This document shows, in pieces, positions 1,673 to 29,381 of a stretch of DNA of 64,000 nt. The position numbers and the translations under genes are program-made. Under the pieces are notes generated by a model that searched no databases, was not told the origin of the DNA, and worked only from the letters and a program-made list of their open reading frames with translations. Each line of letters starts with the position of its first letter. Position 1 is the first letter of the stretch. Origin of the DNA: Deltaproteobacteria bacterium (GTDB taxonomy: Bacteria; Myxococcota_A; Polyangia; Fen-1088); NCBI GenBank assembly GCA_033763315.1, contig JANRKS010000011.1, forward strand, positions 188,493 through 252,492, written 5' to 3'.

Positions 1673-2539
1673 ATGCAAACAGAACTCGCGCTGCCCCAGC
1701 GCCTGTCCGTCTCACGCGGATACTTCACGCCAGCCACGTGGCCTTTTTGGGCCTTTCACATCATCATCATCGCCGGCATCCTCGGCTATGGATGGTCAAC
1801 GAAATGGTTTCTCATCGCTGTGGCCATCTACTTTGCGCGCATGACGTTTGTCACGGCTGCCTACCATCGATATTTTTCTCACCGCGCCTTTAAGACCTCA
1901 CGCGCTTTTCAGTTTGTGCTGGCATTGGCTGCGCAGACGTCGGCGCAAAAGGGCGTGCTGTGGTGGGCGGCACATCATCGCTTCCATCACAAACATTCGG
2001 ACACGCCCCAGGACGCGCATTCAGCAAAACAGCAGGGGTTCTGGCATTCACACATTGGGTGGATCTTGGGGCCGAACTGGGACGACACCGATTACAAGCG
2101 TGTGGCAGATCTGACGCCTTACCGTGAGTTGGTGATCCTCAACCATCCCGCCATCCGCCTGCTTCCCGCGGCGGCGCTCGCCGTGTTGTGTGGGGTTCTC
2201 GGAGGGGCAGAGGGCTTGTTCTGGGGGTTCTTCGTTTCCACAGTGATGCTGTGGCACGGCTCGTTTACCATCAACTCGCTGTCGCATATGTTCGGTACGC
2301 GCCGCTACGACACGCCCGATAACTCGCGCAACAACTGGTTGTTGGCGGTGTTGACGACGGGCGAGGGCTGGCACAACAACCACCACCACTACCAAAGCGC
2401 TGCACGCCAAGGCTTGCGTTGGTGGGAGATCGACACTACGTATTACTTTCTGTGCTTGCTCAGTGGCCTGGGTTTGATCTGGGATCTGCGGCAATACCCC
2501 GCTGAGATGACGGGCGCCCTCACAGACCATAGCGTTTGA
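1673..2539 (+). CDS. Delta-9 type fatty acid (acyl-CoA) desaturase
   Basis: His boxes YHRYFSH, HRFHHKHSD, GEGWHNNHH; hydrophobic segments. Confidence 0.92.
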   Translation: MQTELALPQRLSVSRGYFTPATWPFWAFHIIIIAGILGYGWSTKWFLIAVAIYFARMTFVTAAYHRYFSHRAFKTSRAFQFVLALAAQTSAQKGVLWWAAHHRFHHKHSDTPQDAHSAKQQGFWHSHIGWILGPNWDDTDYKRVADLTPYRELVILNHPAIRLLPAAALAVLCGVLGGAEGLFWGFFVSTVMLWHGSFTINSLSHMFGTRRYDTPDNSRNNWLLAVLTTGEGWHNNHHHYQSAARQGLRWWEIDTTYYFLCLLSGLGLIWDLRQYPAEMTGALTDHSV

Positions 2540-3491
2540 GCTTCTCGTAAAGTGTGGAGGCCGCGATGCCCAGCACGCGCGCGGCCTGCACTTTGTTGCC
2601 GCGTGTCTGCAGCAGGGTTTGACGGATCGCTGTGCGCTCCAGGGCGTCGAGGCTTTGTCCTGCCAAGGGCAGTCGATCCAGAGGGTTGAGGTCGGCCGTG
2701 GACTCCACAAACTTGATGTGATGTGGTTCCAGCACGGCATGGTCGGCGAATGCCAAGGCGTAGGCCAATGTGTTTTTCAGCTCGCGCACGTTGCCGGGCC
2801 ACATATGGGACGCAAGCACGTCGTAAGTCTCTTGCGGCACCTTCATGTGCGGTTGACCAAGATCGCTCAACAGACGATCCACGAGGAGCGGCAAGTCTTC
2901 GAGGCGCTCACGCAGCGGAGGCAGGTGCAAAACGGCGGCAGCCAGTCGAAAGTAGAGATCTTGCCGAAACAGCTTGGTGCTGACTTGGCTGGCGAGGTCT
3001 CTGTTGGTGGCGGCCACGATGCGCACGTCAATGTGCCTGTCTTTCGTGCCACCCACACGGCGGACCGACCGGTTGTCGAGCACGCGCAGCAGCCGCGGTT
3101 GCAAATCAAGCGGTAGCTCGCCGATTTCGTCGAGGAACAGCGTTCCCCCTTGGGCGCTTTCGAAGGCGCCCGCGTGCTCGGCATGCGCGCCCGTAAACGC
3201 GCCCTTTTCGTGGCCGAACAATTCGCTCTCAATCAGGTTGGGAGGCACGGCCCCGCAATCGAACACAGTGAAGGGGCCGGCGGCGCGTTTGCTTTTGTCG
3301 TGAATGGCGTGCGCGAAGACATCTTTGCCTGCGCCGGTTTCGCCCAGAATTGTGACCGTGACGTCGCTTACGGCCAGGCGATCCACTAAATCGAAGACGG
3401 CGTGCATCTGCGGCGAGACGGCCGAGAGGTTGCCCAAGTATCGAGTGTCGCGCGGACGGTTTCTCACGAGCTTTTGAGGGGACACATCCAT
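2520..3491 (-). CDS. Sigma54-dependent enhancer-binding protein without N-terminal sensory domain (AAA+ and Fis HTH)
   Basis: [35 protein letters not shown]-terminal HTH; start taken at ATG 3491 (ORF-track extension to 3626 looks non-coding). Confidence 0.88.
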
Positions 3492-3633
3492 GGGGCGGCT
3501 TTGCCTATAGCGCGCCAACATCCTGTAAATGTGACGTTTCGGCGCCTGGCAAGAAGCGTTTTGTTCGCCGTCTCGTGACATTGGGGGACCGTGCCGTGGG
3601 GTATACGGCTGTCCCAACCACACCAAGCATCAC

Positions 3634-4215
3634 GTGCGCCGCCTGAAAAACATAATATCGAGCGTGAGCGCCCCTGCCGTGCTGGCCGCCGTCGTGATGG
3701 TGTCCGCGTGCGGCCGTGAGGACGACACGCGGCCACCTGAGTGGGATTACATCTCGGCTGCGGTGTTTCAGCCCAACTGCGCAACAGCCAGCTGTCATAG
3801 CCGGGCCACGGCCGCAGCGGGTTTAGACTTTTCAGATGCCGATCGCGGCTACACAAGCCTGACGGGTTTGTGGATTTGGATCGTGGATCCCAACGCCATG
3901 GGGCCCGGATGCCGACCTCACAATGGGACTGACATCTGTGAGCGTGGCGACCGCCCGCTGGTCACGCCCTATGTGCCTTCGCAATCTCGCCTGGTGAACT
4001 CTTTGCGCGCGCGTGGCTCGTCCCGCATGCCGCCGGATCGGCCTTTGACCGAAGCGGATATCGCGCTGGTGGAGAGATGGATATTAAATGGTGCCTTCCG
4101 CGAGCCCGCCCTCGTACGCGCGCGGAGAGATGGCGGGGCTGCGGACGCGGCAGACGGAACAGCTGACGCCGATGCAGGCGTCGGTCCGGCCAACGATGCG
4201 CAAGGTGGAGGCTAA
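3634..4215 (+). CDS. Lipoprotein, probable c-type cytochrome with CX4CH motif
   Basis: Lipobox VSAC; CATASCH; downstream RMPP and ERWILNGA as in Planctomycete-type monoheme cytochrome domains. Confidence 0.65.
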   Translation: MRRLKNIISSVSAPAVLAAVVMVSACGREDDTRPPEWDYISAAVFQPNCATASCHSRATAAAGLDFSDADRGYTSLTGLWIWIVDPNAMGPGCRPHNGTDICERGDRPLVTPYVPSQSRLVNSLRARGSSRMPPDRPLTEADIALVERWILNGAFREPALVRARRDGGAADAADGTADADAGVGPANDAQGGG

Positions 4216-4216
4216 C

Positions 4217-5389
4217 GTGAACTGCCTTGGTATGGCGCTGCGCTTTGGGCTGTCATTGTTGATGGCTTTGGTGGCCGTGGTGGCCACGAGCCGCGTTGCT
4301 CACGCCTACGCTCAATGGCAGTTCTCAAGCGGCACTGTGCGATGCAACCAGTGCCACTATGCGCCGGCTGGAGGCGGTTTGCTTCGGGGCTATGGCCGGG
4401 ATGCCAACGGCGAAGAGCTTTCCACGTTTGAGGGCGATGGCAGCTTTCTTCACGGCGCTGTGGCGTTGCCATCGTGGTTGGCGTTGGGGGCAGACATCCG
4501 CGGCGCTTTTGTGGCCCACAACGCGCAAGATCCGAACGGAACCAAGCTGGCCGTTTTCCCAATGCAGTTCGACCTGCTGGGGCGGGTGGCGTTGCCCTTT
4601 GATATATCGTTTCAAGCCTCGGCCGGCATTAGAGGCCGTGTGAGAGACGATTCGCAGGAAATTCCCACACAGAATTATCAGCCCATTACTGCGTCGTGGC
4701 TGGTGTCGCGTGAACACTTCTTCATGTGGCAACCTGCCGCCGTCGGCCCCTATGTGAGGCTCGGTCGCTTCTTCGCGCCTTACGGCTTGCGGATGGCGGA
4801 GCACATCCTTTACGTGCGACGCGACCTTGGCTTCAACCAGCTGATGGAGTCCTACAATCTATCGGCGGGCGCTGTGTACGACGCTTGGGAACTGCATGTC
4901 ACAGGCTTTTTGCCCGATTTCGCCCGGCACATCGGCAGTGATGAAGGCGGCGTGGCGGCTTTGTTCGAGCGCCGCATTTTGAACGACCATGGTTCGATTG
5001 GTCTGCAAGGCAAGTACGGCAATGGTCCCGGCATCGAGCGCACCATGGCTGGCGTGGTGGGGAAGCTCCACATGCCGTCGCTGCGCACGATGTTGTTGGC
5101 GGAGGCCAACCTCGTTCACCAAGAGCTTTCCGTTGTGGGCGGCAGCAACCAGTTCGTGGGGGCGGCAGGCTTTGCCTCCTTCCCCACGCGTGGCTTGGTG
5201 CTCACGGTGCTGGGCGAGCGAAATCATCAAGACATCGCCATCAAGGGCACCGCGTGGAACGCGGGCACAGTGTTGCTGGGTTGGTTCCCGTACCCGCATT
5301 TTGAGGTGGCGGCGATGGGGCGGCTGCAGTTTCCGGAAGGCCAGGACACCACGCAGACCTTCTTGTTTCAGATCCACTATTTTCTGTGA
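4217..5389 (+). CDS. Monoheme cytochrome c-porin fusion (Cyc2-like architecture)
   Basis: GGAGG before GTG 4217; signal peptide ending AHA; CNQCH near mature N-terminus followed by GGGLLRGYGR; beta-strand pattern; C-terminal FLFQIHYFL. Confidence 0.7.
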   Translation: MNCLGMALRFGLSLLMALVAVVATSRVAHAYAQWQFSSGTVRCNQCHYAPAGGGLLRGYGRDANGEELSTFEGDGSFLHGAVALPSWLALGADIRGAFVAHNAQDPNGTKLAVFPMQFDLLGRVALPFDISFQASAGIRGRVRDDSQEIPTQNYQPITASWLVSREHFFMWQPAAVGPYVRLGRFFAPYGLRMAEHILYVRRDLGFNQLMESYNLSAGAVYDAWELHVTGFLPDFARHIGSDEGGVAALFERRILNDHGSIGLQGKYGNGPGIERTMAGVVGKLHMPSLRTMLLAEANLVHQELSVVGGSNQFVGAAGFASFPTRGLVLTVLGERNHQDIAIKGTAWNAGTVLLGWFPYPHFEVAAMGRLQFPEGQDTTQTFLFQIHYFL

Positions 5390-6084
5390 GGACCATGCGA
5401 GCGCTTTTCTTCACAACCCCCTTATTCGCGCTGCTTTCTGGAGCTTGCACGCCTCCTCCTGATGCGGAAGCGAACCCCACGTGGGCTGATGTCGAGCCGA
5501 TTCTGCGCGGGCAATGCAATTACTGCCATGGCGCGACCGCGCAGAAGACGGGCTCTATCGGGTCGGCGGTTTATCGCCTGGACTTTTATGACCTGGAGAG
5601 TTGCGGCGACGCCGCCTTCGCAATGAGCAACAAAGCACTCGCGCAGGCCTCGGCTTCCTTGTTCACAAGCGATCTGACGATTCCACCCACGGGCGATCGG
5701 CCTCGTATGCCTCCAGCACCCGCCGTGGCCTTGGAAGACTGGCAGCGTGAAACTCTATTGAAATGGGCGAAGAACCCCGTCAAGGGCCCGCCACCCGCGG
5801 ACAATAAACCGCCGTTTATGCAGGTGCAGAAGCTGCCGGTGAGCGCTGATCGGTCGCTGTCTTTCACCGCGGTCACAGATGATCCCGATGGACACTCTGT
5901 TGTGGGGGTGATTCGCGTGGCAAACGCGCTGTTCCGTATGGATCGTTCGGGCTCGTTCGCCGTGAACATTGACGCTTCAGCCTGGCCCGAAGGTTCACAA
6001 CGTATCACGGCCACGCTGTGCGACGGCTGGACGCAAGCACAGTTCGACTTGGGGCAAGTGGTCATCAAGCACAGCGGCCGCTAG
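5386..6084 (+). CDS. Monoheme c-type cytochrome lipoprotein with C-terminal Ig-like domain
   Basis: Lipobox LSGAC; PTWADVEPILRGQCNYCH; RMPP; GTGA overlap with upstream stop. Confidence 0.75.
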   Translation: MRTMRALFFTTPLFALLSGACTPPPDAEANPTWADVEPILRGQCNYCHGATAQKTGSIGSAVYRLDFYDLESCGDAAFAMSNKALAQASASLFTSDLTIPPTGDRPRMPPAPAVALEDWQRETLLKWAKNPVKGPPPADNKPPFMQVQKLPVSADRSLSFTAVTDDPDGHSVVGVIRVANALFRMDRSGSFAVNIDASAWPEGSQRITATLCDGWTQAQFDLGQVVIKHSGR

Positions 6085-6719
6085 GGCGAGGGCAGGGCGG
6101 TCCGCAAGATCACGTTGTCGAACAGCGCCGGTGTCGTGTTGTCGACGTCTGTGCTGACGGTGGCCAGCTGGGCGCGCACAGACCGCGACGCCGTTGGTGA
6201 CAACGCGTGCATAGAAAGTGTTTCCCACAGCTTGGAGCCAGACACGCTGGGTGATGTGAACCTCTCCAGGCTCCGGCCACCACACGCTTGCCCATCAAAG
6301 AATTCAAGACTGATCGCGGCGCGGGCAGAGCTAGAGGCCAAGCGCACGCTTGCCAGCAATTGGTAGGGGGCGGCGGACTGTGCGGGCACGCATTGCCACG
6401 ACCCTGTGGTGGATATGGCGGCGTCCGCAAACGTTTGACTTGCGCCTTCGTCAGCGGTCCAACCTTGCAGGTCGTCTCTGAAACTGAAGTTGCTTAGCAA
6501 CGAGGTTTCCGCTCGCTCAACGGGCTCCTTTTGCCACGCCAATGCCTGTGGCGAAGGAACCGCGTTTGAATCAAAAATACCTTCGACCTTCACAAGAATC
6601 TCGCAGTTTGCACAACTGCCCACCCGCTGTACGGTGCCCCAGTCATAGCCGCAGGCCATCGCCGATGTGGCGGCAACAAAGACCCCAAAGGCCTGCCGGG
6701 CGAAAGAGCTAAGACACAT
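6081..6719 (-). CDS. Lipoprotein with carbohydrate-binding-module-like (CBM4/9-like) domain
   Basis: Lipobox AMAC; C-terminal domain (N.SF...WT...QCV...LFDNV.L) shared with 19392..21437 and 26954..28213. Confidence 0.6.
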   Translation of the reverse strand: MCLSSFARQAFGVFVAATSAMACGYDWGTVQRVGSCANCEILVKVEGIFDSNAVPSPQALAWQKEPVERAETSLLSNFSFRDDLQGWTADEGASQTFADAAISTTGSWQCVPAQSAAPYQLLASVRLASSSARAAISLEFFDGQACGGRSLERFTSPSVSGSKLWETLSMHALSPTASRSVRAQLATVSTDVDNTTPALFDNVILRTALPSP

Positions 6720-6795
6720 GTTGGGCGCGCTCCCTTAGCTTAGTTGACCTCGGGTGAATTGAAACAGTGCGGTTTGCCTGCAACACAATCGTCAC

Positions 6796-6837
6796 AAAAG
6801 CAAAACGCCCGCCCTCCCGAAGGAAAGCCGGCGCCTT
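6796..6837 (-). terminator. Rho-independent terminator after the Cys-rich lipoprotein gene
   Basis: Minus strand GGCGCCGGCTTTCC-TTCG-GGAGGGCGGGCGTT followed by TTGCTTTT. Confidence 0.75.
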
Positions 6838-6854
6838 ACTAACCGATCAGCTGG

Positions 6855-8372
6855 TTACAGCGTGCACTGCGCGGAGCAGGAAGCGCCGTCGCAGAAGATC
6901 AGGTTTGTACCGCCACCGATGGGGAAGCCTGGGTCGCGGAAGCGAGTGCCAACGTCCGTTGCTTGACGTTCAGCGCACACGCCGTCGGCGATTTCGGCCG
7001 CGGTGCAGGGCTCGAGCTCAGCAGCGGCTTCAGCTTGGGCCTTGCAGAGGCCGTTGCCGTTGCCACCCAAGCACTGGCTGTCACTGCGTGTACCGCAGTA
7101 GCACTTTTGTGGGTCGGTGCCGCCAGCGGAGCACTTGGTTGTACGGATGCAGGCCACCCAAGCTTCGCAAGCTGCCTTGCGAGCGCCGGTGTAAAGGCCA
7201 CAACCCGCCGTGTTGGCATCGCAGCTCGTGGCTTCGCAGGCAACGCAGAGATCGATCGTCTTGCAAGCCGTGGTGCAGGTCGCGCTGCCAGCAGGACCGG
7301 CATCGCACTCTTCACCGTCGTCAACAACGCTGTCGCCGCAAACGGGGATCTTGGGGAACTTGCAGGTTGCGGAGCAGACGCCGCCAGCCACAGGCGAGCC
7401 GGGAGGATCGCATTGCTCGCCAGGTTGAACCAAGCTGTTGCCACAGGCCACAGGAATAACTTGGCAGGTCGCCGAGCAGGTGTTTTCGCCACCCGAGGTC
7501 GCATTGGGTGGGTCGCAGCCTTCGCCCGCTTCCAACTTACCATTGCCGCAAACTGGAATGATTTGGCAATCAGCGTTGCAGCTCACGCCGTTGGTCACAA
7601 CGCCTGGAGGCTCACATTGCTCGCCCAGGTTCGTCTCAAGCACACCGTTGCCACAGCTCAAAGCCACACAGTTCACGTCCACAGAGGCCGTGGTGGTGCA
7701 CTTGCTGTCGGAAACTGAAACCGTCAACGTCTTCAGACCACCCGAGGTGCAGGTGAACTTCGTGGAAGCGGCGCCGGCTGCTTCGAATGTGCCACCCGTC
7801 CAGGCGAACACCAGCGTGTCGGTTGCGTCCAAGTCGGAGGCCGTGGCGCCAACCGAGATCTTGCCGCCCACGGACACAGCCTGAGGAGCCACAACCTGCG
7901 AGGTGATGGCTGGGCAGTTGTTCGTGGAGCCGGTAATCGCAACGTTGCCCGAGGTCACTTCGGCGCGGCATTGCAATTGAACGGAAACCAACGTGGTCTT
8001 TCCGGCTTCAACGCCGAAGGTGGCTTGACCACCGCAGGTCGTCTTGCCGTCCGTGGACTTGGCCGTCAGGTCCATCACGTACCCTGTGCCGGCAGGAATG
8101 CCGCCCACGAAGAACGTCAAGGTGGCGCCGGGATCGCTTACGTCAACGCTGCCCGCGATGGGCGCGCCGAGCGGAGGAACGCCGCCCGAGATTGAGTAGT
8201 CAACGCTGTTAACGTTAACACCATTGGAAAGCTTCAAAGCCATGCTCAGCACGCCCGTTGCGGGAGCGCCTTGGTTCTTGTCTTTGTCGCTGGAACAGTT
8301 GACGACTGCGGCTGCCGAAACGACACCCGCGATCGCCAGAAACATTGCCTTCTTGGCTGTTGTCTGGAACAT
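6855..8372 (-). CDS. Cys-rich modular surface lipoprotein with myxobacterial Cys-rich (DUF4215-type) repeats
   Basis: GAGGAGG RBS before ATG 8372; lipobox VVNC; four CG(N/D)xxxxxGExC repeats; beta-sandwich, Ig-like and C-terminal Cys-rich modules. Confidence 0.85.
   Translation of the reverse strand: MFQTTAKKAMFLAIAGVVSAAAVVNCSSDKDKNQGAPATGVLSMALKLSNGVNVNSVDYSISGGVPPLGAPIAGSVDVSDPGATLTFFVGGIPAGTGYVMDLTAKSTDGKTTCGGQATFGVEAGKTTLVSVQLQCRAEVTSGNVAITGSTNNCPAITSQVVAPQAVSVGGKISVGATASDLDATDTLVFAWTGGTFEAAGAASTKFTCTSGGLKTLTVSVSDSKCTTTASVDVNCVALSCGNGVLETNLGEQCEPPGVVTNGVSCNADCQIIPVCGNGKLEAGEGCDPPNATSGGENTCSATCQVIPVACGNSLVQPGEQCDPPGSPVAGGVCSATCKFPKIPVCGDSVVDDGEECDAGPAGSATCTTACKTIDLCVACEATSCDANTAGCGLYTGARKAACEAWVACIRTTKCSAGGTDPQKCYCGTRSDSQCLGGNGNGLCKAQAEAAAELEPCTAAEIADGVCAERQATDVGTRFRDPGFPIGGGTNLIFCDGASCSAQCTL
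7260..7658 (-). repeat. Four in-frame myxobacterial Cys-rich repeats
   Basis: CGNGVLE..GEQC, CGNGKLEAGEGC, CGNSLVQPGEQC, CGDSVVDDGEEC. Confidence 0.8.
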
Positions 8373-8455
8373 CGAAATCCTCCTCAAAAAGAACTTTACT
8401 GAAAGGTTGGTAGTGACACTGGTGCACGGAACGCGCTGCCAGCAACACCCGCCCT

Positions 8456-8591: not shown

Positions 8592-8685
8592 TCCGGATTC
8601 CGGTGATGTGCATTCGAAAGCTGGAAACCTTTGGCGTCGTCTGGGCCGCCCTACAGAAATCGAACGAGACCCTTCGATAATCGAA
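8592..8685. promoter_or_regulatory. Two pairs of 13-bp imperfect palindromes, putative enhancer (UAS) sites
   Basis: TCCGGATTCCGGT (8592), TTCGAAAGCTGGA (8613), TACAGAAATCGAA (8652), TTCGATAATCGAA (8673); 21-bp spacing within each pair. Confidence 0.5.
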
Positions 8686-8888: not shown

Positions 8889-10529
8889 ATGAGATCTATG
8901 TTTCTAGGGGCAGCTTTCGTCACCATCAGCGCGACCGCCGCGTCTGTTGGTGCAATAAACATTTCAGGGTCTGACACCCTGGAGCTTTTTACGGACCTCG
9001 TGTTGGCAGACCCTGCCTGTACGGGTGTTAGCTCGTTGAACTACGTTGGTGGCGGTTCCACCAAAGGCCAGAACGACACCGTTGCTGGCTTGCAGCAGGT
9101 AACGTCGATGTCCCGTTACCTCAACAGCACCGCGGCCGCCTGCGCTTCGTATCCTGAAGGCGAAGGCATCGTGGTTGCTCTTGATGGTTTGGCCGTTGTC
9201 GCCAACAAGGGCGAAGCTGCCGCTTGCGGAAACGCCTTGGCCACCAATAAGGTTTTGCCCAGCGGCTACACGTTGGGTGGCTGGCGCGACGCTTTGAGCA
9301 TCATCTACTTTGGCCGTCAAAAGGACAGCACAACGCGAGATTGCAACAGCGCCGTTCGTAACGAGCTGGTCAACAACTGGGGAAGCTTGTTCCAATCCGG
9401 TTGTGCGGGCGGGACGTGCACGAAGTTGAACCACGCTTGGCGTCGTTCTGACTTCTCGGGCACCACGGACGTGTTCGTGGCCTTGGTTTCCGCGAGCCAC
9501 CCGGGTGGCGGCGGCAGCCTTTCGATCCCGCTCAAGACGGGCTCAGGCGTGAACCCCTTCTGCAACTCCGCAACAACGGCGCAAGCCGGCGGCGTGTCTG
9601 ACTTCCAAGACAACGATCCGATTCGTCGCGACTGCACGAGCGATGAGCAGGTGTGCTCGATGCCCCTTTACAGCGGCTCGACGCTTTCCCGCAACGACAA
9701 GAAGCTGGGCTTGGTTCAGGTGATCTTCGTGCCTGAACTCAGCACCAACGCGGAAAACTACCCCACGCAAGCCTGTACGTTCGGCCAATGCCGCTTCTTG
9801 CTCACGGGTGCAACGGTTCTGAACTGTCCTAACGGCAAGTCGCAATTGTTCGGCAAGTGCTTCGGCCCTGTGCGCACCACGGGATTGCCCGCTGGTCAGT
9901 TCGATGCCTCTTGCATCAACCAACCGAACTTCACCTGCTTTGGCGCCACGCCTGGCCAAGATGGCCGTGCGTATAACCTGGCCGTTCGCAAGGCGGACGG
10001 AAAATACGTTGTGGACAAGGAAAACCGCCCCGTGTTTGGCGCTTACTTCCGCATCCACACAACTCAACAAACCATCAGCCCCACGGGCGTGATGACGTTG
10101 GGCACCCCGCTTTGCCGCGAAGACGATGCCACCCGCCAAATCGGCTGCTTGCCACAAGTTGACAAGTGCTCCATCGGCTTTGCTGGCCGCGAAGCAGAGT
10201 CCGCTGAATTGCGTCCTGACACCAAGGCGCTTTCGGTTGACGGCGTCTTCCCAACGCTTGAAAACGTTGAGTCGTTGGTCACGGGCGTTGGCCCACGTTA
10301 CCCATTGGCACGCAAGCTGTACTTCAACACCTTGAAGGGTTTTGGCGCCGTCACGGGTGAAGAAGCCAACTTGGCAGCATGTATGTCGAACAAGACGATC
10401 GTTGACCGCGCTGTCAACGCCTCGGGCTTCATTCCGCTGCCTGGCACCGCCTTGAAGTGCCAAGACAACGGCTGTGGCGCCGGCACCGGCTGCGAGAACA
10501 ACATCGCTCCGATTCCATCGGCTGAGTAG
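8889..10529 (+). CDS. Secreted Cys-rich PstS-like phosphate-binding-fold protein
   Basis: GGAGGAG RBS before ATG 8889; signal peptide; PstS-type motifs ISGSDT, GGGSTKG, MSR, VALDGLAVV, RRSDFSGTT, YPLARKLY; 22 Cys. Confidence 0.75.
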   Translation: MRSMFLGAAFVTISATAASVGAINISGSDTLELFTDLVLADPACTGVSSLNYVGGGSTKGQNDTVAGLQQVTSMSRYLNSTAAACASYPEGEGIVVALDGLAVVANKGEAAACGNALATNKVLPSGYTLGGWRDALSIIYFGRQKDSTTRDCNSAVRNELVNNWGSLFQSGCAGGTCTKLNHAWRRSDFSGTTDVFVALVSASHPGGGGSLSIPLKTGSGVNPFCNSATTAQAGGVSDFQDNDPIRRDCTSDEQVCSMPLYSGSTLSRNDKKLGLVQVIFVPELSTNAENYPTQACTFGQCRFLLTGATVLNCPNGKSQLFGKCFGPVRTTGLPAGQFDASCINQPNFTCFGATPGQDGRAYNLAVRKADGKYVVDKENRPVFGAYFRIHTTQQTISPTGVMTLGTPLCREDDATRQIGCLPQVDKCSIGFAGREAESAELRPDTKALSVDGVFPTLENVESLVTGVGPRYPLARKLYFNTLKGFGAVTGEEANLAACMSNKTIVDRAVNASGFIPLPGTALKCQDNGCGAGTGCENNIAPIPSAE

Positions 10530-21494: not shown

Positions 21495-21510
21495 ATCAAC
21501 TCGTGTGCCA
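21495..21510 (-). promoter_or_regulatory. Putative sigma54 -24/-12 promoter of the 21437-14719 operon
   Basis: Minus strand TGGCACACGAGTTGAT (TGGCAC-N5-TTGA), ~58 bp upstream of ATG 21437. Confidence 0.65.
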
Positions 21511-21663: not shown

Positions 21664-21749
21664 TGGTCTTGTTACACGTCCGTCAAAAAGCGGGAGCGGA
21701 ACCGTAACATCGCAGCGGACACACTCCGGCTATAACGGCGTCGTTCTTG

Positions 21750-22805
21750 ATGTCACACACACAATCAGTCTCACCGCTCGCCTTCTTGCCTCCCGTCACC
21801 ACGGCCTTCGATCTCAAGCGATCGGCTGTGGTACAGAAGCTGCCTCGCCCCGCTTCGCTTCGGTCGTCACGCCGGGATGCGACCACGTGTGGAACCGATG
21901 GGCGATCAGCCCAGATCCGCGAGGTCACCGACCTTATAGGCCGGCTTGCCAATGCCGAAGTCACAGTGGCAATCTTGGGCGAAACGGGGAGCGGCAAAGA
22001 TGTGGTGGCGCGAGCCCTTCACGAAGGCAGCCACCGATCCGCTAAGCCATTTGTGGTGTTCGACTGCGGCGCCGTACCGGCAAACCTGGTGGAAAGTGAG
22101 CTCTATGGCCACGAACGAGGCGCCTTTACGGGCGCGCATAGCGAACACCAAGGCGCCTTCGAGCGCGCGCGCGGCGGAACACTTTTTCTCGACGAAATCG
22201 GTGAGCTTCCCTTAGAGCTGCAACCGAGGTTGCTCCGCGTCTTGGATAACCGCCGCATTCGCCGCGTGGGCGGTTCGCGTGAACACAACGTAGAGGCCCG
22301 GGTTATCTGCGCGACAAACCGCAACCTGGCTCACCTGGTGGCGGCGAAGAAATTCCGCGAAGATCTATACTTTCGTCTCGCCGGCGCCGTGATCTCCGTG
22401 CCGCCGCTTCGCGAACGCAAGGAGGACTTGCCCCTGTTGATCCCCCGCCTGCTTGAGGAATTGGGTGGTGCGGATGTGCAGCTTTCTCCCGCGGCACTTG
22501 ATCTGCTGGCCGCCCATTCATGGCCCGGCAACGTGCGAGAGCTTCGCAATACGCTGGCCTGCGCCTTGGCTTTCATTGATGGCCACCGGCTTGAAGCTCA
22601 CCACATTCGGCTGATGGCTTCTACGTCGGAGCCGCCAAAGGCAGACGCGCTCCTGTTAGGCGGTCTAACGCTTGAGAGTCTCGAGCGCATGGCGATTGCA
22701 CAAACTTTGACTCAAAGCCGCGGCAACAAGCTGCACGCGGCGCGCGTGCTTGGAATTGCTCCGTCAACGCTTTACGAGAAGCTCAAACGCTACGGGATGT
22801 CTTGA
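21750..22805 (+). CDS. Second sigma54 enhancer-binding protein without sensory domain
   Basis: [57 protein letters not shown]; close paralog of 2520..3491. Confidence 0.9.
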
Positions 22806-24229
22806 TGTTCTCGAAAGTAAAACTTTGGATCGTGCTGCTTATGGCCACCTGGGTCACCGATGCCGCCGCTGCGTCTAGCGCGACGTCGCAAGGCGACACC
22901 TGCAAGAACGCCATTCGCCGCGGGCAGCGGGCTACCGCCATCGCCGCCTGCAAGGAAGCTTTGCGGGTGCGTTCGGCACCTGAGCAGATGACCGATGTCG
23001 TGCAGGCCCTCCTTTTGGGCGAGGCGCCTTTGACGCCGGAGGCGCTATATGAGGCGGCCGTTATGAGCCGAAGCGCTTCCCGCTGGGGCGACCTGTGGGG
23101 AGCCATGACTCGCTGCCACTTGGGCAAGCGTCTGGGAGATGAACACATGTTGACGACGTGCACGAAAACACTGACAGAAAAGTACGCACACCTTCCGCAA
23201 GTGAGCGCCCTGTTGCAAGATCTTAAGCCACGAAAGCCCTGGGGATTCTTGGTTTCGTGGGGCGTGATGCTTGCGTGTCTAGCGGGCACCGCAGCGCATG
23301 CCCTCTTGCGATGGCTAAAGAGTCACACAAAAGCGACGGCCGTTGCTGCTGTAGCCGCCATCCTGCTTGCCAGCTTGGTGCCATCATTGGCCCGCGCCCA
23401 ACAAGGCACACCGATCGATATCGATTTGCCAAACCGATTTCCCATCGACGACGCCAACCCACGGGCAAGCGTTCCGACGCCAGAGCAGCGAGAAAAGTTC
23501 CCGCTCGATTTCGGTTACTTCCTGCAGGAATCCCTGGATAGGGCTGAGCGCGCGACCGCAGAGAAACGTCACGCCGACGCTGCGAAGTATTACTACGCCG
23601 TGGCAGCCGCTGTGCCCGATGTGGCCATCGGCTTTACGAAGCTGTGCGATTCACTTGAGAAGGCGGGCCAGATAAAGGAGGCCATCCTGGCTTGCAAAGG
23701 TGCCGTCGCGCGCGAAGGCGCCAAAGTTGCCGACCATGTAAATCTGGTGCGTCTCATCTTTTCGCAGCCCGATCCCTTAGAAACGAAACAGCTTGAAGAT
23801 GTAGCCGCCACCGTTGCACACCTGAAGGCAGAGGCTGAGAAGAAGAACCTTGTGGACACGCGCATTGTTGCGCTCGACCTTGAGTGCGACCTCGCCAAAC
23901 GAACGCACGACAATGGGCTGCTTGCGAAATGCACTGAGGAGTTGGCAAAGCTCTCACCGGGGACAGCCCGAACGATTTCATTGCAGTGGGCTGTGGCGAT
24001 GCTCAACAACGACAAGCCGGCTGCCGAACGCTTGGCGGCTCTGGCGGCGGAAAAGAATTTGTCTGCCGAAGTTGTAAGCAAGATGAAAGAGGGGGCGCAA
24101 TCGTTAAAGCCCGCTTGGCGCCGAGCATTCAGTGATTGGCGCATTTTACTGACGGCCGTGTTCGTCGTCTTTGCGGCTGGGCTTGTGGCCTTGCGCAAAC
24201 GGACGTGGTTTCGTCAACGAATGGCATGA
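22802..24229 (+). CDS. TPR-like membrane-anchored exported protein
   Basis: Signal peptide, helical TPR-like regions, two central hydrophobic segments, C-terminal TM plus basic tail. Confidence 0.65.
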   Translation: MMFSKVKLWIVLLMATWVTDAAAASSATSQGDTCKNAIRRGQRATAIAACKEALRVRSAPEQMTDVVQALLLGEAPLTPEALYEAAVMSRSASRWGDLWGAMTRCHLGKRLGDEHMLTTCTKTLTEKYAHLPQVSALLQDLKPRKPWGFLVSWGVMLACLAGTAAHALLRWLKSHTKATAVAAVAAILLASLVPSLARAQQGTPIDIDLPNRFPIDDANPRASVPTPEQREKFPLDFGYFLQESLDRAERATAEKRHADAAKYYYAVAAAVPDVAIGFTKLCDSLEKAGQIKEAILACKGAVAREGAKVADHVNLVRLIFSQPDPLETKQLEDVAATVAHLKAEAEKKNLVDTRIVALDLECDLAKRTHDNGLLAKCTEELAKLSPGTARTISLQWAVAMLNNDKPAAERLAALAAEKNLSAEVVSKMKEGAQSLKPAWRRAFSDWRILLTAVFVVFAAGLVALRKRTWFRQRMA

Positions 24230-24235
24230 GTTGCG

Positions 24236-24979
24236 ATGAAATCCCTGCTTCTCATTTCCACGGTGGCGTGCACCCTCTTGCCGGGCCTCGGCCGCTTGGC
24301 CAACGCACAGCCGGGCGATGGTGAGAAGGCCGAGCCAAAGTGGATCGATCAAACTGTTGAGCAGGCCTCAGCCCCGGTGCCGCCCGCAGCAGAGCTGCGT
24401 GCCCCGCGCTTTGAGGGCGGGCTTATGTTGGGCGGATATCTGCTGGGCAGGGATCTCGAGTTGGGTGTTCCGGATAGACCTGGCTTTGTGCCTGGTCCGC
24501 GAACGTTGAACGGAATCGTAGGGCTGCGCCTTTCAGTCGAGGCCCTGCGAACACTGAGCATCGAAATCGAGACCGGCATCGCGCCAACCAAAGACCGTGA
24601 GGACGGCCTGGCGGCCACCTTGTGGCTGGGGCGGCTTCACGCCGTCATTCCGGTGGATGTGGATGGCTTCTTCGCAAAGCAACACTTTCGACCGTTTCTG
24701 CTGGGTGGCGTGGGTTTTGCCTCCGTCGTGAGTACCGATGGTCGCGTCGATGCCTTGGGCAATGTCTATGGGCTTCCTCGCAAAGACACCGATGCTGAAT
24801 TTCACCTGGGGGCTGGTATCAAATGGGATCCACACGAGCTTGTGACCTTGCGTTCAGACATTCGCATCTATCAGATGCCCAACACCAAGAGCCAAGGAAT
24901 CACGCCGACCTGGGAAATCGCTGTGGGCGCCAGTTTCAAGTTTGCCCGCGCGTGGGGCCGCAAAACCGACGCTTTCTAG
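24236..24979 (+). CDS. Outer-membrane beta-barrel protein (OmpA-like barrel)
   Basis: Signal peptide; RPFLLGGVG, FHLGAGIKW, LRSDIR, WEIAVGASFKF. Confidence 0.7.
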   Translation: MKSLLLISTVACTLLPGLGRLANAQPGDGEKAEPKWIDQTVEQASAPVPPAAELRAPRFEGGLMLGGYLLGRDLELGVPDRPGFVPGPRTLNGIVGLRLSVEALRTLSIEIETGIAPTKDREDGLAATLWLGRLHAVIPVDVDGFFAKQHFRPFLLGGVGFASVVSTDGRVDALGNVYGLPRKDTDAEFHLGAGIKWDPHELVTLRSDIRIYQMPNTKSQGITPTWEIAVGASFKFARAWGRKTDAF

Positions 24980-26862
24980 CCGTCACCTTCGTTGTCGTCA
25001 GCGTACTGCTTGCCGGCGAGGCGGGCGCGGAACCCTACGCCGGCGCGGCCTCAACGCGTCGTCTGATCGCTGAGGTCCTGAAGCGGTGTCCAGGGGCGGC
25101 CTCGCTGGCGTTCGATGGCACAAGCTCGAGCAAGGCCGAAGAGGCGCTGGTGTTGCAACAGCAGCAGACGTCCCCCATGACGCGTGATCTTGGGCCCTCA
25201 CTCACATGCCAGGCGCCCTCACCGGGCGAAGCAGAGGGCCTCCTTGTCGGCCTCGACGCGGTGTCGCTCTATGCGGCGCCTACTGATCAAGCGCTTTGTT
25301 TGTCCGGCTTGACGGGCGGCGTGCAGATCGACGTTGAAGATCAAAATGGCATCGCCGGTGTGCAGTGCCCGGGATGCAACGGCAACCAATATCCCCTGGC
25401 GGATTGGAAAGACGTTCTTCGGTTGGTGTATTTGGGATTGCCCAAAGCTGCAGGTGCCGACCTTTCGCAGCGCGATTGCAACAGCGACGTACGCCACACC
25501 CTGGTCAACCGATGGGTAAGTCTGTTTGGATCTGGCTGTATTGGCAATCAATGCTCTCGGCTCGAACACGCCTTCCGCCCGGGCGATCACAGCGAGAAAA
25601 CGGCGCTGTTCTTGAGTTTATTGGGCCTAGCAAACACGGCTCCCGTAAATGCGTTTTGCAACGGGGTGGGGGCGCCTGCTTTCCCCGCGGTCCCCACAGC
25701 CAAAGACGCGCTCAGCGACTTTTGGGATGGCGATCCAGTGCGTCGGCCGTGTGATTCGAACCATCAAGTGTGCGCCGCTGATCACACGCTGGGCCTCGTG
25801 CTGCCAGTTGTGGTTCCCGAAAATTTACCGCCTGAAGTGGCGTACCCAACGCAGCCCTGTTCGTTTGGTGTGTGCCGTTTTCTGTTCACGAACCAACTTG
25901 TGTTGACGTGCCCGAACGGCAAGCCTCAACTGTTCGGAAAGTGCTTCCAGCAAGTTGCGAATCTGCCAAACGGGCAGTTTACAGCTGCTTGCGTTCCGGA
26001 CGCCGGTTACACATGCTTTGGCGCGGGCAACCAGGATGGCCGTGTTTACACAAAAGCCACGCTGAATCCGAACGGAACGTACGCAGTGGATGGCGCAGGG
26101 CGCGCGCTCACGGGATCTTTCCATCGGCTTAATGCCACGCGTGCCCGCGGCGCTGGCTCCCCGTGTCGGCAAACCAATGGGTTGGCACAGATTGCCTGTC
26201 TTTCGCAATCTGTTGGCTGCAGCATGGGCGCCGCAGGCATCGACAGCGGCAGCGGCGTGGCCAACGTGATGGCCTTGCCAGTGGCGGGTGTTGCCCCGAC
26301 GATCGAGAACGTACGCAAGAAGGCCGAAGGCGAACAAGCGCCCGGTGCCTACCCCTTGGCCGCACGCGTGTTGCTGAACTCAATGCGCGGCTTTGATGTC
26401 TTAACGTCTCCGGCCGAAGGCAACTTAACCGGCTGCTTCAACAGCCCTTCATTGATGGCAGCCGCTTTAAATGCCTCAGGGCTCACGCCCCTTGCCACGC
26501 CGCCCAAGTGTGTTGACTTCGACGAACGCGCTTGCGGCCTCACTTTGTTTAACCGCAACGCATGCAACAAGCGCATGTTCAATTGGTGCCCCACCATCTC
26601 GGGCTTGTTCGTCGCGCCTACGACCACGGGTGTGGGGGGCAGCATTTCCCTGTTCGCCTCGGCCACCGATGACGATGGGGCGCTGGATCCGATGGAGTAC
26701 GTATGGTCAGCACCCAGCGGAGCCTTCGCGGATCGCTTTGCCAAGAACACAAAGTTCACTTGCACCGCGCCCGGCACGTTTGACCTGCAGCTGGCCGTTT
26801 GGGACGGCGCCTGCAAAACCGAACAGTCAGTGACGGTCACCTGCGTGGCGCCCACCCTTTAA
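24952..26862 (+). CDS. Second Cys-rich PstS-like protein (degenerate binding motifs) with C-terminal Ig-like module
   Basis: Aligns with 8889..10529 (RDCNS.VR..LVN.W, D.DP.RR.C, CPNGK.QLFGKCF, YPLA); start taken at GTG 24952 before signal peptide. Confidence 0.72.
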   Translation: MGPQNRRFLAVTFVVVSVLLAGEAGAEPYAGAASTRRLIAEVLKRCPGAASLAFDGTSSSKAEEALVLQQQQTSPMTRDLGPSLTCQAPSPGEAEGLLVGLDAVSLYAAPTDQALCLSGLTGGVQIDVEDQNGIAGVQCPGCNGNQYPLADWKDVLRLVYLGLPKAAGADLSQRDCNSDVRHTLVNRWVSLFGSGCIGNQCSRLEHAFRPGDHSEKTALFLSLLGLANTAPVNAFCNGVGAPAFPAVPTAKDALSDFWDGDPVRRPCDSNHQVCAADHTLGLVLPVVVPENLPPEVAYPTQPCSFGVCRFLFTNQLVLTCPNGKPQLFGKCFQQVANLPNGQFTAACVPDAGYTCFGAGNQDGRVYTKATLNPNGTYAVDGAGRALTGSFHRLNATRARGAGSPCRQTNGLAQIACLSQSVGCSMGAAGIDSGSGVANVMALPVAGVAPTIENVRKKAEGEQAPGAYPLAARVLLNSMRGFDVLTSPAEGNLTGCFNSPSLMAAALNASGLTPLATPPKCVDFDERACGLTLFNRNACNKRMFNWCPTISGLFVAPTTTGVGGSISLFASATDDDGALDPMEYVWSAPSGAFADRFAKNTKFTCTAPGTFDLQLAVWDGACKTEQSVTVTCVAPTL

Positions 26863-26953
26863 AGGGGCCTTGTTGCACACCTGTCACGCAAGCAACAAGT
26901 TCATGAAGCTGTTGCTTGTGCCCGGCACGTAACCGCTTTATGAACGGTATGTC

Positions 26954-28213
26954 TTGAGCGCCGGCTTCAAATCATTCTCGTTCGCGGCCAAGCGGCGCCT
27001 ATTCCAACGGATGTGGTTGCTCGCTTTGTTGGTGGCTGCATCGTGTGGCGACGACTACCCCCCGTTCGAGGAAGCACAGCTTGACCGCGGGGGGCTCGAG
27101 CTCGCTCTCACAGTTGCGCCGGGCATCGCCATTGCAAGCATCGCCTATGAAATCGATGCGGCCTCGGGCGCGCGGGTTGCGTCCGGCAGTATCGATGTGA
27201 ACGATGTGGCCGCCACAGCTTCGATGCACATATCTGGCCTTCCGGCGGCGGCGGGGTATGAGGCGCGGTTTTCGGGTGCGACGCCGGATGGCAAAACGAA
27301 GTGCGAAGGCAAGGCGTCGTTCAACATCAGCGCTGGTTTAACAACGGCGGTGACGCTCAGGATGGATTGCCGCACAGCCAGTGACCGCGGCGGCGTCTCT
27401 GTTGTTGTCACGACCAACTTCTGTCCTCGCATCAATCTGCTGGTCATTGGCCCCACCAGCGCCGCATTTGGCAAAACCATCTCGGTGGCCGCAAACGTTA
27501 GCGATGACGATGGGACCACCCCAACCATCTTGTGGACGGCGACGGGCGGGCGTTTCGGCAACACGGCGCAAGCCAACACCACGTACACTTGCTCGAAGTC
27601 GGGCCCTCAGCGGCTGACGTTGACAGTGACTGACGGCGCGTGTTCGACCACAATGGTTGGTGACGTTCAGTGTGGCTCATGCGGGGCCGCCGACATCGAC
27701 GCCAATGGCGTGCTCGACTGTGAGGAGACCTCGGTCATAAACGGCGAATTCGCTGCTGACGTGGCGGCGTGGAATCTAGACGTTGGGGGAACGAAGCAGT
27801 TCTTTGCGGCGGACGGATTGGAGAGTGCCACTTCGGGGTCGATGCTCGTCGCGAATGCCAACATCGCTGACGTGGCCGGCTCCAGTTTGGCGGGGGTCAA
27901 CCAATGCGTTTCCATTGTGCCCGGAGCAAACTACCTGTTGATGAGTCAGATCCTCATCCCCGTCAACCAGTCGCCCGGCTTTGCCGCCAACAGCGTGTTC
28001 TTCTACGGCACGCCCAATTGCACGGGCGGCGTTTTGAACGTGTTTACGTCGCAAGCTGTGACCGTCACCAACAGTTGGACAAAACTTATCTCACGGCCTA
28101 CAGCACCCGCTGGCAGCCAATCTGCCTTGCTGCGTCTGGTTGTGGGCAAGAGTTTTCGGCAGCCAAGCCTGCAAGCGTTGTTCGACAACGTCCTGTTGCG
28201 CAGGGATCAATAG
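26954..28213 (+). CDS. Modular lipoprotein (beta-sandwich + Ig-like + CBM-like)
   Basis: Lipobox AASC; N-terminal half homologous to 6855..8372, C-terminal to 6081..6719 and 19392..21437; start may be ATG 27011. Confidence 0.75.
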   Translation: MSAGFKSFSFAAKRRLFQRMWLLALLVAASCGDDYPPFEEAQLDRGGLELALTVAPGIAIASIAYEIDAASGARVASGSIDVNDVAATASMHISGLPAAAGYEARFSGATPDGKTKCEGKASFNISAGLTTAVTLRMDCRTASDRGGVSVVVTTNFCPRINLLVIGPTSAAFGKTISVAANVSDDDGTTPTILWTATGGRFGNTAQANTTYTCSKSGPQRLTLTVTDGACSTTMVGDVQCGSCGAADIDANGVLDCEETSVINGEFAADVAAWNLDVGGTKQFFAADGLESATSGSMLVANANIADVAGSSLAGVNQCVSIVPGANYLLMSQILIPVNQSPGFAANSVFFYGTPNCTGGVLNVFTSQAVTVTNSWTKLISRPTAPAGSQSALLRLVVGKSFRQPSLQALFDNVLLRRDQ

Positions 28214-28334
28214 CGAGGTGGCATCGAGCGCAGGGGATTGGCCCGCGGAACAAAATCACACTTTGCGTGAAGGTTTGCCTGTCTTGGCTACATACTCAAC
28301 CTTGGACAGCTCGCTCACCAAGGAAGTTCGGCCC

Positions 28335-29381
28335 ATGCAACACATCTTGTTCCCACGATCCGTTCTGTTTTGTGCGGCCTTCATGTCGCTCGCGGCGTGC
28401 GCGGCCTCAAGCAGCAACAGCAACTCGAACGGGGGCGAGGGTGGCGAAGCGGTGGCGGGCTCGGGCGGCGCCCTGAACGGGCCGTCCAACGGCGGCGCAA
28501 ACACAGCGGGTGCCGGTGGCACGACTGACGCCGGCATGCCCAACGGGGGCGGTGGCGGGCCATCGGCGGGGGGCGCGGGCATGGGAGGCAATGCCGGTGG
28601 CAACACGGGCGGCGCGTCTTCACAAGGCGGATCGGCCGGCCGTAACTACTCAACGGACCCTGCGAGCTTCTTGGGCGAAAGCCGGTGTGGCCAAAGTGGC
28701 TTGAAACTCTGCGATGGCTTTGAAGGCGCCGCGATCGATACCGCCGTGTGGCAGCTGCAAAAGCAAGGCACGAACGTGGTTGAGCTTGTGTCCGATGAAC
28801 ACGCGCGCGGCAACAAAAGTGTGCACATCCGCGCCAACAACGGCTTCGGCAACCTGCGCACCACGAAGGTCTTCCCGATGCCCAACAACACGTATTGGGC
28901 GCGCATGTTCGTCAAAGTGAAGCGCTTCTCGACCGTCGATTGGGCGCATTGGACGATGGCCGAGGCCACGGGCGCGGGTGACGGCTCGTTGATTCGCGTC
29001 GGCGGTCAATACAACTCCGTCGACAAGAAGAACCGCTGGGGCGTTGGCTCCGATGGTGGTCCCACGGGCGATTGGACGCGGCACGATAAAGATCCCAATG
29101 GGGCGCCCGTCGAGCCTGCCGTGAATCGCTGGGTGTGCCTGGAATGGCTTCACGACGGCAAGAACAACGTCACGCGCTTCTTCGTGGATGCGCAAGAGCA
29201 CCCATCGCTCGCCACGAGCGCTACGAACGGCAACACAAGCAAGCCGAACGTGCCCTATGTGTTGCCGATGTTTGCTTCCGTGTGGTTCGGGTGGTGGCAA
29301 TACCAGGCCGACGCCGTGCCGTTCGATCTGTGGATCGATGAGCTTGCGATCGACGGCCAGCGCATCGGCTGCACCCTCTGA
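28335..29381 (+). CDS. Lipoprotein with Gly-rich linker and Cip1-like / polysaccharide-lyase-like jelly-roll domain
   Basis: Lipobox LAAC; CDGFE, WAHWT, RVGGQ, WVCLEW, DLWIDELAI..RIGC. Confidence 0.6.
   Translation: MQHILFPRSVLFCAAFMSLAACAASSSNSNSNGGEGGEAVAGSGGALNGPSNGGANTAGAGGTTDAGMPNGGGGGPSAGGAGMGGNAGGNTGGASSQGGSAGRNYSTDPASFLGESRCGQSGLKLCDGFEGAAIDTAVWQLQKQGTNVVELVSDEHARGNKSVHIRANNGFGNLRTTKVFPMPNNTYWARMFVKVKRFSTVDWAHWTMAEATGAGDGSLIRVGGQYNSVDKKNRWGVGSDGGPTGDWTRHDKDPNGAPVEPAVNRWVCLEWLHDGKNNVTRFFVDAQEHPSLATSATNGNTSKPNVPYVLPMFASVWFGWWQYQADAVPFDLWIDELAIDGQRIGCTL

Follow-up and report, generated by a model that had tools for sequence, protein, structure and literature searches.

The stretch of DNA described here (64,000 nt, contig C11 positions 188493-252492; hereafter, the window) belongs to a genome of 7.6 Mb in 40 contigs and carries, at 2520-29381, a cluster of genes for cytochromes, a heme-bearing porin, PstS-like proteins, Cys-rich lipoproteins and a signal peptidase, which is conserved among uncultured Polyangia and which we tentatively regard as encoding an outer-membrane electron-transfer system. 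The gene map was drawn from the listing of open reading frames (ORFs), their translations, and Pfam and NCBIfam scans; the remainder of the window is made up of housekeeping genes. The cluster is arranged in divergent blocks: the plus-strand genes g02-g03-g04 (3634-6084) diverge from the minus-strand activator gene EBP1 (2520-3626); the plus-strand g07 (8889-10529) diverges from the minus-strand g05 and g06 (6081-8387); the minus-strand operon g15-g14-LepB, tightly packed with gaps of 3 and 17 nt and running from 21437 down to 14719, diverges from EBP2-g17-g18-g19, followed by g20 and g21 (21747-29381). A signal peptide, a lipobox or transmembrane helices were found, reading the translations by eye, in every product that is neither regulatory nor part of an embedded ars block, in agreement with the first-pass annotation, made by a model from the sequence, which had described nearly all the genes outside the ars block as encoding exported or membrane proteins. 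The six CXXCH and one CX4CH heme sites counted there are likewise all accounted for: the CX4CH site is found in g02, one CXXCH in each of g03 and g04, and four in g14, and all of them are invariant among homologues.

The three genes of the first block form a compact trio, the central member of which, g03 (4217-5389, plus strand), encodes a heme-porin of 385 amino acids composed of a signal peptide, a single heme site (RCNQCH, the CNQCH being found 14 residues after the predicted cleavage site between AHA and Y) and a predicted 16-strand barrel. The flanking genes g02 (3634-4215, plus strand) and g04 (5386-6084, plus strand, with a 4-nt overlap with the g03 stop) encode lipoproteins with PSCyt1-like one-heme domains (C....CH or C..CH, then ...RMPP); in particular, g02, which gives a weak PSCyt1 match, carries a CATxSCH (CX4CH) site and an RMPPD motif, and g04 carries CXXCHG and MPP and ends in a C-terminal beta domain. 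The heme sites are invariant in alignments of 37 (g03), 13 (g02) and 15 (g04) sequences. In the AlphaFold2 model of g03, computed from the 37-sequence alignment (mean predicted local distance difference test score, pLDDT, 71.4), 16 strands follow a heme segment of about 60 residues, the N-terminal heme segment (residues 25-66) being predicted with low confidence. When this model was submitted to Foldseek, 232 porin-type matches were obtained, headed by OprB, chitoporin, OmpU/T and AlgE, with OprP (2o4v) ranking 29th (E 2.7e-7), and the nearest named cluster in the ESM Atlas is Porin_O_P (0.97). Of the two beta-barrels proposed for the cluster in the first-pass annotation, the one in g03 is thus upheld as a prediction; the other, g18 (24236-24979, plus strand), is a small putative outer-membrane barrel whose match to OMP_b-brl is weak (23 bits, below the cut-off of 28.7).

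The family to which g03 belongs is large and almost devoid of names. At E<=0.001 there are 671 homologues, the best 120 of which are unnamed or "hypothetical" with one exception, labeled by JGI as a predicted CxxxxCH...CXXCH cytochrome family protein; a g03 profile run against 1.84 billion representatives collected at least 1674 clusters at E<=1e-3 (878 at 1e-10 and 157 at 1e-30), the clusters being drawn at 50% identity and their number being a lower bound. The distant members of this superfamily, which are 355-390 amino acids long and unnamed, share the pattern A[FY]P[EQ]..R.GY..C..CH.SP.GGG.L; out of ten scored, two lie above the Pfam cut-off for Porin_O_P and another misses it by 0.1 bit. 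In one distant branch, represented by 40 metagenome loci with a G+C content of 33-54%, an exported protein of about 180-235 amino acids is usually found directly upstream on the same strand; a small CXXCH lipoprotein occupies the upstream, same-strand position in 9 of the 40, and all seven of the other upstream neighbors tested match Pfam YceI. We have not seen this recurrent pairing of a heme-porin with a YceI protein described.

To our knowledge, Cyc2, which is the iron oxidase of iron-oxidizing bacteria and a marker gene for neutrophilic iron oxidation, is the only fused cytochrome-porin that has been described. In Keffer et al. 2021 (PMC8406198), it is defined by a signal peptide, one CXXCH, a 16-strand OprO/P-like barrel and a length of at least 365 amino acids, with a motif unique to it, (A)XPXFAR[Q/K][T/Y], five residues upstream of CXXCH and a PXL motif four residues downstream. 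In its predicted architecture g03 is similar, having a signal peptide, a single CXXCH near the mature N-terminus, 16 predicted strands in 385 amino acids, an OprO/OprP-related barrel, and an A-x-P-x-aromatic sequence before the heme site (A-Y-P-Q-W, resembling the A-X-P-X-F of Cyc2). It differs in both motifs: FAR[Q/K][T/Y] is missing, the family consensus being AYPQWQLSSGAxRCNQCH and the distant heme-porins reading AFPEMVRHGY..C at the same position, and PXL is missing too, CNQCH being followed by YAPAGGGL, that is, by P at +3 and then AGGGL. Moreover, g03 has a signature of its own (A[YF]P[QE]..(R)..C..CH.[AS]P.GGG.L), is encoded between two one-heme lipoproteins, of which one carries CX4CH, and occurs in lineages that are not iron oxidizers. 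Since the architecture agrees and neither motif does, in a comparison made with the published description of Cyc2, g03 has the Cyc2 architecture but should not be filed as Cyc2.

The trio is not confined to the vicinity of g14. A second, stand-alone g02-g03-g04 trio is present in this genome (contig C19, 166244-168659), situated between arginine decarboxylase/chorismate synthase genes and unrelated genes; in 11 further trio loci, some from genomes lacking g14 and some from three other families, g02 always adjoins g03, and g04 comes next in 8. The trio adjoins speA (arginine decarboxylase), a housekeeping context, in 5 of the 10 annotated loci; the speA-trio context recurs in related genera, and RNase T and BrkB are found in three loci. 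In one genome of another family the trio is followed by a receiver-less activator. The trio is therefore an autonomous module, which also exists as a stand-alone three-gene operon.

The largest protein of the cluster, g14 (15762-19388, minus strand), is a lipoprotein of 1208 amino acids with four CXXCH sites; these and the lipobox Cys are conserved, and CXXCH is invariant in a 35-sequence family alignment. Homologues at E<=0.001 number 645, the best 120 being unnamed, "hypothetical" or "mono/diheme cytochrome c family protein". Residues 388-515 alone match a curated family, TIGR03806, the SO2930/HNE_0200 diheme family (E 3.5e-28), with a score of 98.7 bits that is far below the curated cut-off of 313.3; weak PSCyt1 matches are seen in 11 of the 35 aligned sequences, among which the g14 of the window itself is not included, and also in small neighbor proteins elsewhere. 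With respect to the SO2930 family, g14 is four times as long and contains two additional heme domains; SO2930/HNE_0200 (TIGR03806) and PSCyt1 are themselves uncharacterized families, and the literature outside subscription journals, to which all our literature searches refer, yielded one mention of SO2930 and no description of SO2930/TIGR03806.

Structural searches led to heme proteins as well, below the level at which kinship is proven. No PDB sequence matched g14 with E up to 1, the family profile aligned in the PDB only with short stretches around the heme sites of cytochromes c, and in the ESM Atlas only clusters of the cytochrome c/PSCyt1 type were found. With the AlphaFold2 model of g14 (1187 residues, pLDDT 77.8, predicted template-modeling score 0.72), Foldseek gave nothing at E<=0.001, the best E of 0.14 being at chance level, and VIA-align gave no Z score of 8 or more, all values being under 6 and in the chance range. 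The highest was obtained with FoxE (Z 5.6 over 80 residues at 2.7 Å, model residues 60-150), along with class I cytochromes c (Z 5.2-5.3, model residues 759-1173) and cytochrome P460 and cytochrome c'-beta (Z 4.8-5.3, model residues 206-441); such matches are to be regarded as leads only. Single domains within a model of 1187 residues are barely tested by VIA-align, and "no known fold" is not claimed for them.

Downstream of g14, 17 nt after its stop, lies g13 (14719-15744, minus strand), a signal peptidase I paralogue hereafter called the cluster LepB, which scores 104.9 bits on Peptidase_S26 (cut-off 22.9) and 99 on TIGR02227 (cut-off 47) and whose translation contains the catalytic Ser and Lys motifs, SMVPT and KRVIGLPGD, as well as GDNRGFSEDSR. 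The housekeeping LepB of the same genome, encoded on contig C19, is matched in all 26 genomes searched and has orthologues 53-77% identical to it in the 13 relatives of the same family with a full-length match, whereas its identity to the cluster LepBs is only 36-41%; for this reason the cluster enzyme is considered a distinct paralogue, and the second LepB reported in the first-pass annotation is confirmed as such. In Bacillus, SipW is a type I signal peptidase dedicated to TasA/TapA; similarly, the cluster LepB is an extra paralogue located inside an operon of exported proteins that it presumably matures, but, unlike SipW, it is a bacterial P-type S26 enzyme with a Ser/Lys dyad. Being a lipoprotein, g14 would not need this LepB for its own signal peptide.

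Two PstS-like proteins are encoded in the cluster. The first, g07 (8889-10529, plus strand), passes the cut-off of Pfam PBP_like_2 (29.2 bits against 27), contains Cys-rich insertions (22 Cys) and, like PstS, retains the SGS.T, GGGST, SMSR and RR.D.SGT motifs (the latter as RRSDFSGT), which we take to be the PstS phosphate site. The second, g19 (24823-26862, plus strand; its start is likely near 24952), is a paralogue of g07 (36.6% identity) with 31 Cys, no Pfam match of its own, a degenerate anion site and a C-terminal PKD-like domain. The R..D.SGT motif is kept in 45 of 68 related PstS-like ORFs, and the family of g07 is confined to metagenome-assembled genomes (MAGs) of Polyangia. Such proteins differ from PstS in having about 230 extra residues and 20-50 Cys, and in being encoded by the side of g14 and LepB with no pstCAB alongside; indeed, pstCAB is absent from the whole window, as had been annotated, and canonical pst genes are found elsewhere in the genome, on contigs C1 and C2. 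PDB sequence searches with g07 and g21 returned chance-level matches only.

The Cys-rich lipoproteins are connected by shared modules, as had been stated in the first-pass annotation. The product of g06 (6855-8387, minus strand; 39 Cys) comprises an N-terminus resembling Ig and PKD domains, myxo_disulf_rpt repeats (36.3 bits on TIGR02232, the Myxococcus cysteine-rich repeat, cut-off 20.8) and a C-terminal Cys module; that of g15 (19392-21437, minus strand), which heads the g15-g14-LepB operon, contains (VGTGG)n linkers, two Cys modules of the g06 type (67% identity over 134 amino acids between g06 and g15) and a C-terminal domain that is weakly CBM_4_9-like; and that of g20 (26954-28213, plus strand) joins an Ig-like N-terminus shared with g06 to a C-terminal module like that of g15, the shared-module identity between g06 and g20 being 33-35%. 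Two further lipoproteins are the small g05 (6081-6719, minus strand), which Pfam leaves unmatched and whose sequence looks by eye like the C-terminal module found in g15 and g20, and g21 (28332-29381, plus strand), with a Gly/Asn-rich tether and a beta-rich domain. Pfam searches with A2, g05, the C-terminal parts of g15 and g20, g17 and g21 gave only weak CBM_4_9/HpiC1 (E about 0.015) and PKD matches. The linkers of g15 are encoded by runs of a near-identical 18-nt unit (19950-20700), which produce inside the gene repeated TGGCAC hexamers resembling -24 promoter elements.

The conservation of the cluster was analyzed first within the family and then more widely. Full-length homologues of g14 (E<=1e-70, 40-53% identity) are found in 17 of 36 other genomes of the same family, and strong ones (E<=1e-70) in none of 24 genomes from other families of the class; g03 is present in all 18 genomes with g14, this one included. 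In 11 neighborhoods of 10 relatives, the same families (g02, g03, g04, the activator, g17, g06-like, g20-like and PstS-like, with LepB in three) surround g14 in shuffled order and orientation. A scan for g14 with one genome per species found 295 related stretches, of which 79 loci were retained; in the 34 having full 10-kb flanks (tblastn above 60 bits), g14 is accompanied by PstS-like genes in 33, LepB in 29, g17 in 24, g06-like genes in 21, g20-like genes in 19, the activator in 16, g03 in 15, g02 in 10 and g04 in 8, counts which, since the relatives are kin, do not represent independent events. The usual order is g14, LepB, one to three PstS-like genes, and g17. At the other extreme, g05 was found in none of the 34 flanked loci nor of the 79 overall, g18, g21 and the DsbD-like gene of the ars block had no match at the search threshold in any of the 79, and clustering of the unmatched ORFs revealed no additional family exceeding 9 of the 34 loci; permease or ATPase genes are absent from the window and recur in none of the 34.

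The core is thus made up of g14, LepB, the PstS-like genes and g17; the Cys-rich lipoproteins, the activator and the heme-porin trio are its frequent companions, while g05, g18, g21 and the ars/DsbD block are local additions. The gene-neighborhood check proposed in the first-pass annotation therefore finds homologues that are not scattered, the core genes remaining together across many genera in shuffled order. All of the 79 loci come from uncultured MAGs bearing the labels Polyangia, Myxococcales, Polyangiaceae, Haliangiales and similar, plus one labeled Luteimonas, whose contig (JACMKK010000070.1) carries a g14 homologue of 40% identity and is to be explained by faulty binning or by a transfer. 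A proline-rich protein, porin-like by eye, adjoins the cluster LepB in several related loci (14756-16459 and 15262-16947 in two of them); these ORFs fall into two families, found in 6 and 4 of the 34 loci, and are absent from the window.

The ars block (10674-14651, plus strand) comprises arsC (a low-molecular-weight phosphatase homologue), arsR, ACR3, an exported ArsC-like low-molecular-weight phosphatase and a DsbD-like gene with a thioredoxin domain. The set arsC-arsR-acr3 occurs twice in the genome, in the window (10674-12563) and on contig C31 (210872-212725), with 84-91% protein identity, and ars genes are found in none of the 34 fully flanked g14 loci; the block is an insert lying outside the system, as the first-pass annotation had it. 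The window copy splits the conserved LepB/PstS junction, and no convincing repeats were found flanking it. Its last part (12602-14651) encodes an ArsC-like protein with a signal peptide, in which the CX5R and C..ADKNCP motifs are kept, and, after it, a membrane protein of the DsbD type that ends in a thioredoxin domain; both genes are missing from the C31 copy, and the pair may possibly constitute a periplasmic, DsbD-fed arsenate reductase. Outside the cluster, a 293-amino-acid ORF (window 41338-42219) matches TSP_C, the thrombospondin C-terminal region (E 1e-24), which is unusual in bacteria.

As for regulation, the first-pass annotation had recognized two paralogous, sensor-less sigma54 activators, and this is borne out. 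EBP1 (2520-3626, minus strand; its true start is probably internal, near 3491) and EBP2 (21747-22805, plus strand) both consist of Sigma54_activat, an AAA lid and HTH_8, both carry GAFTGA in the AAA+ domain, and are 63% identical to each other; no receiver, GAF, PAS or V4R domain was detected in either by Pfam, and on the pspF model they score 239-248 bits, below the cut-off. An rpoN gene is present in the genome. The stop of EBP2 overlaps the start of g17 (22802-24229, plus strand), which is thus translationally coupled to it and encodes a membrane protein with a signal peptide, a periplasmic domain A, two transmembrane helices, a periplasmic helical domain B and a C-terminal transmembrane helix (three hydrophobic segments after the signal peptide); conserved Cys pairs are found in the periplasmic domains.

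The earlier claim of matching promoter and upstream activator motifs is supported only as regards one shared palindrome. This palindrome, of the form TTCGAT-N(1 or 5)-ATCGAA, occurs twice in the 64 kb, where none is expected, as TTCGATAATCGAA (8673-8685) and as TTCGATTTTCAATCGAA (21631-21647), and the two copies fall exactly in two divergent intergenic regions, g06/g07 and g15/EBP2. In a relaxed form it is found 7 times in 1.35 Mb of related loci, always as a 13-mer outside the matched genes and in 5 cases within 400 nt of a cluster gene; palindrome-like 13-mers are found beside cluster genes in 7 relatives, and the whole 7.6-Mb genome contains 25 copies of the relaxed form, of which 2 are here. 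On these grounds, TTCGATAATCGAA and TTCGATTTTCAATCGAA are candidate activator sites, and TTCGAWNWTCGAA is a candidate for the DNA target of the activator. A candidate -24/-12 element of g15, TGGCACACGAGTTGA (21496-21510, minus strand), is located 59 nt 5' of the gene and has one mismatch with the consensus, at the C of the -12 GC. Taken as a whole, the window contains 6 matches to the sigma54 consensus against 10.15 expected from shuffles; when weights or two mismatches were allowed, the window and 11 related neighborhoods gave scattered matches only; TGGCAC is not enriched in intergenic DNA (3 of 31 occurrences in 6% of the bases); no conserved element could be seen by eye upstream of g02 across 10 loci; and scans for sigma70 promoters and terminators gave nothing above shuffles. 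The case for sigma54 control is made by the activators lying next to the cluster (16 of 34 loci) and by one common palindrome, and not by recognizable -24/-12 promoters.

Other systems comparable with this locus are MtrCAB, MtoAB/PioAB and the Geobacter porin-cytochrome conduit Pcc, in which, as here, an outer-membrane barrel is encoded together with c-type cytochromes, lipoproteins included. In those systems, however, deca- or multiheme proteins thread the barrel, whereas here 16 strands are predicted and the partners have one heme each; with respect to the multiheme cytochromes of Mtr and Pcc, g14 has only 4 hemes in 1208 residues. The barrel of the Mtr, Mto and Pio complexes has 26 strands, as stated in PMC8406198. 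No named family or publication matching the whole gene set was found, consistent with the first-pass annotation, in which the set was not recognized as a named system. Since the core genes co-occur and no named family matches them, the description of the locus as a conserved, undescribed, exported system with redox and PstS-like components stands; of the single co-regulated structure originally proposed, what persists is the conserved exported redox and PstS-like core, while the trio is autonomous and g05, g18, g21 and the DsbD-like gene are not conserved. A single physical coat, fibre or complex is not supported.

What is established is the gene content, the invariant heme sites, the prediction of the barrel, the conserved neighborhood, the separate LepB and the phosphate-site motif in most of the PstS-like genes. 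Beyond this, we are inclined, with some reserve, to see in the locus a conserved and undescribed cluster of uncultured Polyangia encoding an outer-membrane electron-transfer system. The trio would form a small porin-cytochrome conduit acting like Cyc2, in which the N-terminal heme of g03 would be located at or in the barrel and the PSCyt1-like lipoproteins g02 and g04 would pass the electrons on; the redox partner acting at the outer membrane, catalytic or terminal, would be g14; what the PstS-like proteins bind would be a tetrahedral oxyanion, phosphate or an analogue, serving as substrate, product or target ligand; the dedicated LepB would mature the exported non-lipoprotein subunits; and transcription of the set would be turned on by the receiver-less activators via sigma54, starting close to the palindromes and perhaps under the control in trans of g17.

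Several observations weigh against this reading. Hemes are few (seven in about 2000 residues) and form no multiheme wire, and neither an inner-membrane quinol dehydrogenase nor an oxidase is encoded in the cluster; both Cyc2 motifs are missing from g03; the structural matches of g14 do not rise above chance; g14 and the PstS-like proteins could be placed either at the surface or in the periplasm; sigma54 sites, including TGGCAC, are not above expectation; and the kinship of the relatives causes the independence of the co-occurrence counts to be overstated. In addition, since the trio stands alone elsewhere, a functional link between it and g14 is not required.

This last point leads to the main rival, namely that two independent neighboring systems are present, an autonomous trio with a redox or detoxifying role in the envelope and a g14-LepB-PstS-g17 unit, possibly enzymatic, with no electrons passing between them. 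The stand-alone copy on contig C19, the constancy of g02-g03 (11 of 11 other loci, with g04 in 8), the occurrence of the trio in genomes without g14, in other families and beside speA in half of the annotated loci, and the fact that only 15 of 34 loci have g03 at 10 kb or less from g14 all speak for such a separation; yet g14 has the trio or g03 as a recurrent neighbor in many genera, in varied order and orientation, a pattern suggestive of selection for proximity, g03 is carried by every one of the 18 genomes with g14, and the activator adjoins either module, be it the trio or the g14 unit. Independence of the two is rather unlikely, and the preferred reading of a joint electron-transfer system is kept ahead of it.

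More doubtful is iron(II) oxidation of the Cyc2 type, according to which g03 would oxidize Fe(II) at the surface, the one-heme lipoproteins would pass the electrons inward and g14 would be an accessory. The architecture of g03 and the resemblance of its A-Y-P-Q-W to A-X-P-X-F agree with this, as does the finding that VIA-align places FoxE, a putative iron oxidase, first among its matches to the first heme domain of g14; but the Z score of 5.6 is within the chance range of the method, g03 is devoid of the diagnostic FAR[Q/K][T/Y] and PXL motifs, genes for an oxidase or for carbon fixation are not found nearby in the window, no literature linking Cyc2 to the orders of Polyangia was found, and neither the PstS-like proteins nor LepB are accounted for. 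Least probable of all is a regulon of unrelated exported proteins serving envelope stress or surface remodeling with no joint mechanism: the activators do lack a sensor domain, as does PspF, to whose model both give sub-threshold scores, g17 is translationally coupled to EBP2 and the exported genes g05, g18 and g21, specific to the lineage, accompany the cluster, but the same specific families, and not arbitrary exported proteins, recur across genera, and no PspA-like gene is present in the window.

If, on the other hand, the electron-transfer system that we favor is taken one step further, it might be imagined as a device at the cell surface for redox-assisted phosphate mining, in which the trio would export electrons to g14, g14 would reduce the Fe(III) minerals that sorb phosphate, and the PstS-like proteins, braced by disulfides and tethered next to g14, would capture the phosphate or arsenate released; this elaboration is put forward as a speculation of low probability. 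Were it true, it would represent a new coupling of extracellular electron transfer to nutrient capture in soil bacteria, and the heme-porin superfamily, with its 1674 or more clusters across phyla, would constitute a second, much wider class of Cyc2-like electron gates.

A second large and unnamed superfamily with the Cyc2 architecture is in any case at hand, found in Polyangia and, in other forms, in lineages of low G+C content together with small cytochromes or YceI-like proteins, and one of its members is embedded in a conserved cluster in uncultured Polyangia of soil, peat and sediment. If the parts work together, the cluster would be an unrecognized outer-membrane route of electron transfer tied to oxyanion binding in abundant soil predators, which would bear on the cycling of iron and phosphorus and on the way in which Cyc2-like matches in metagenomes are to be read.

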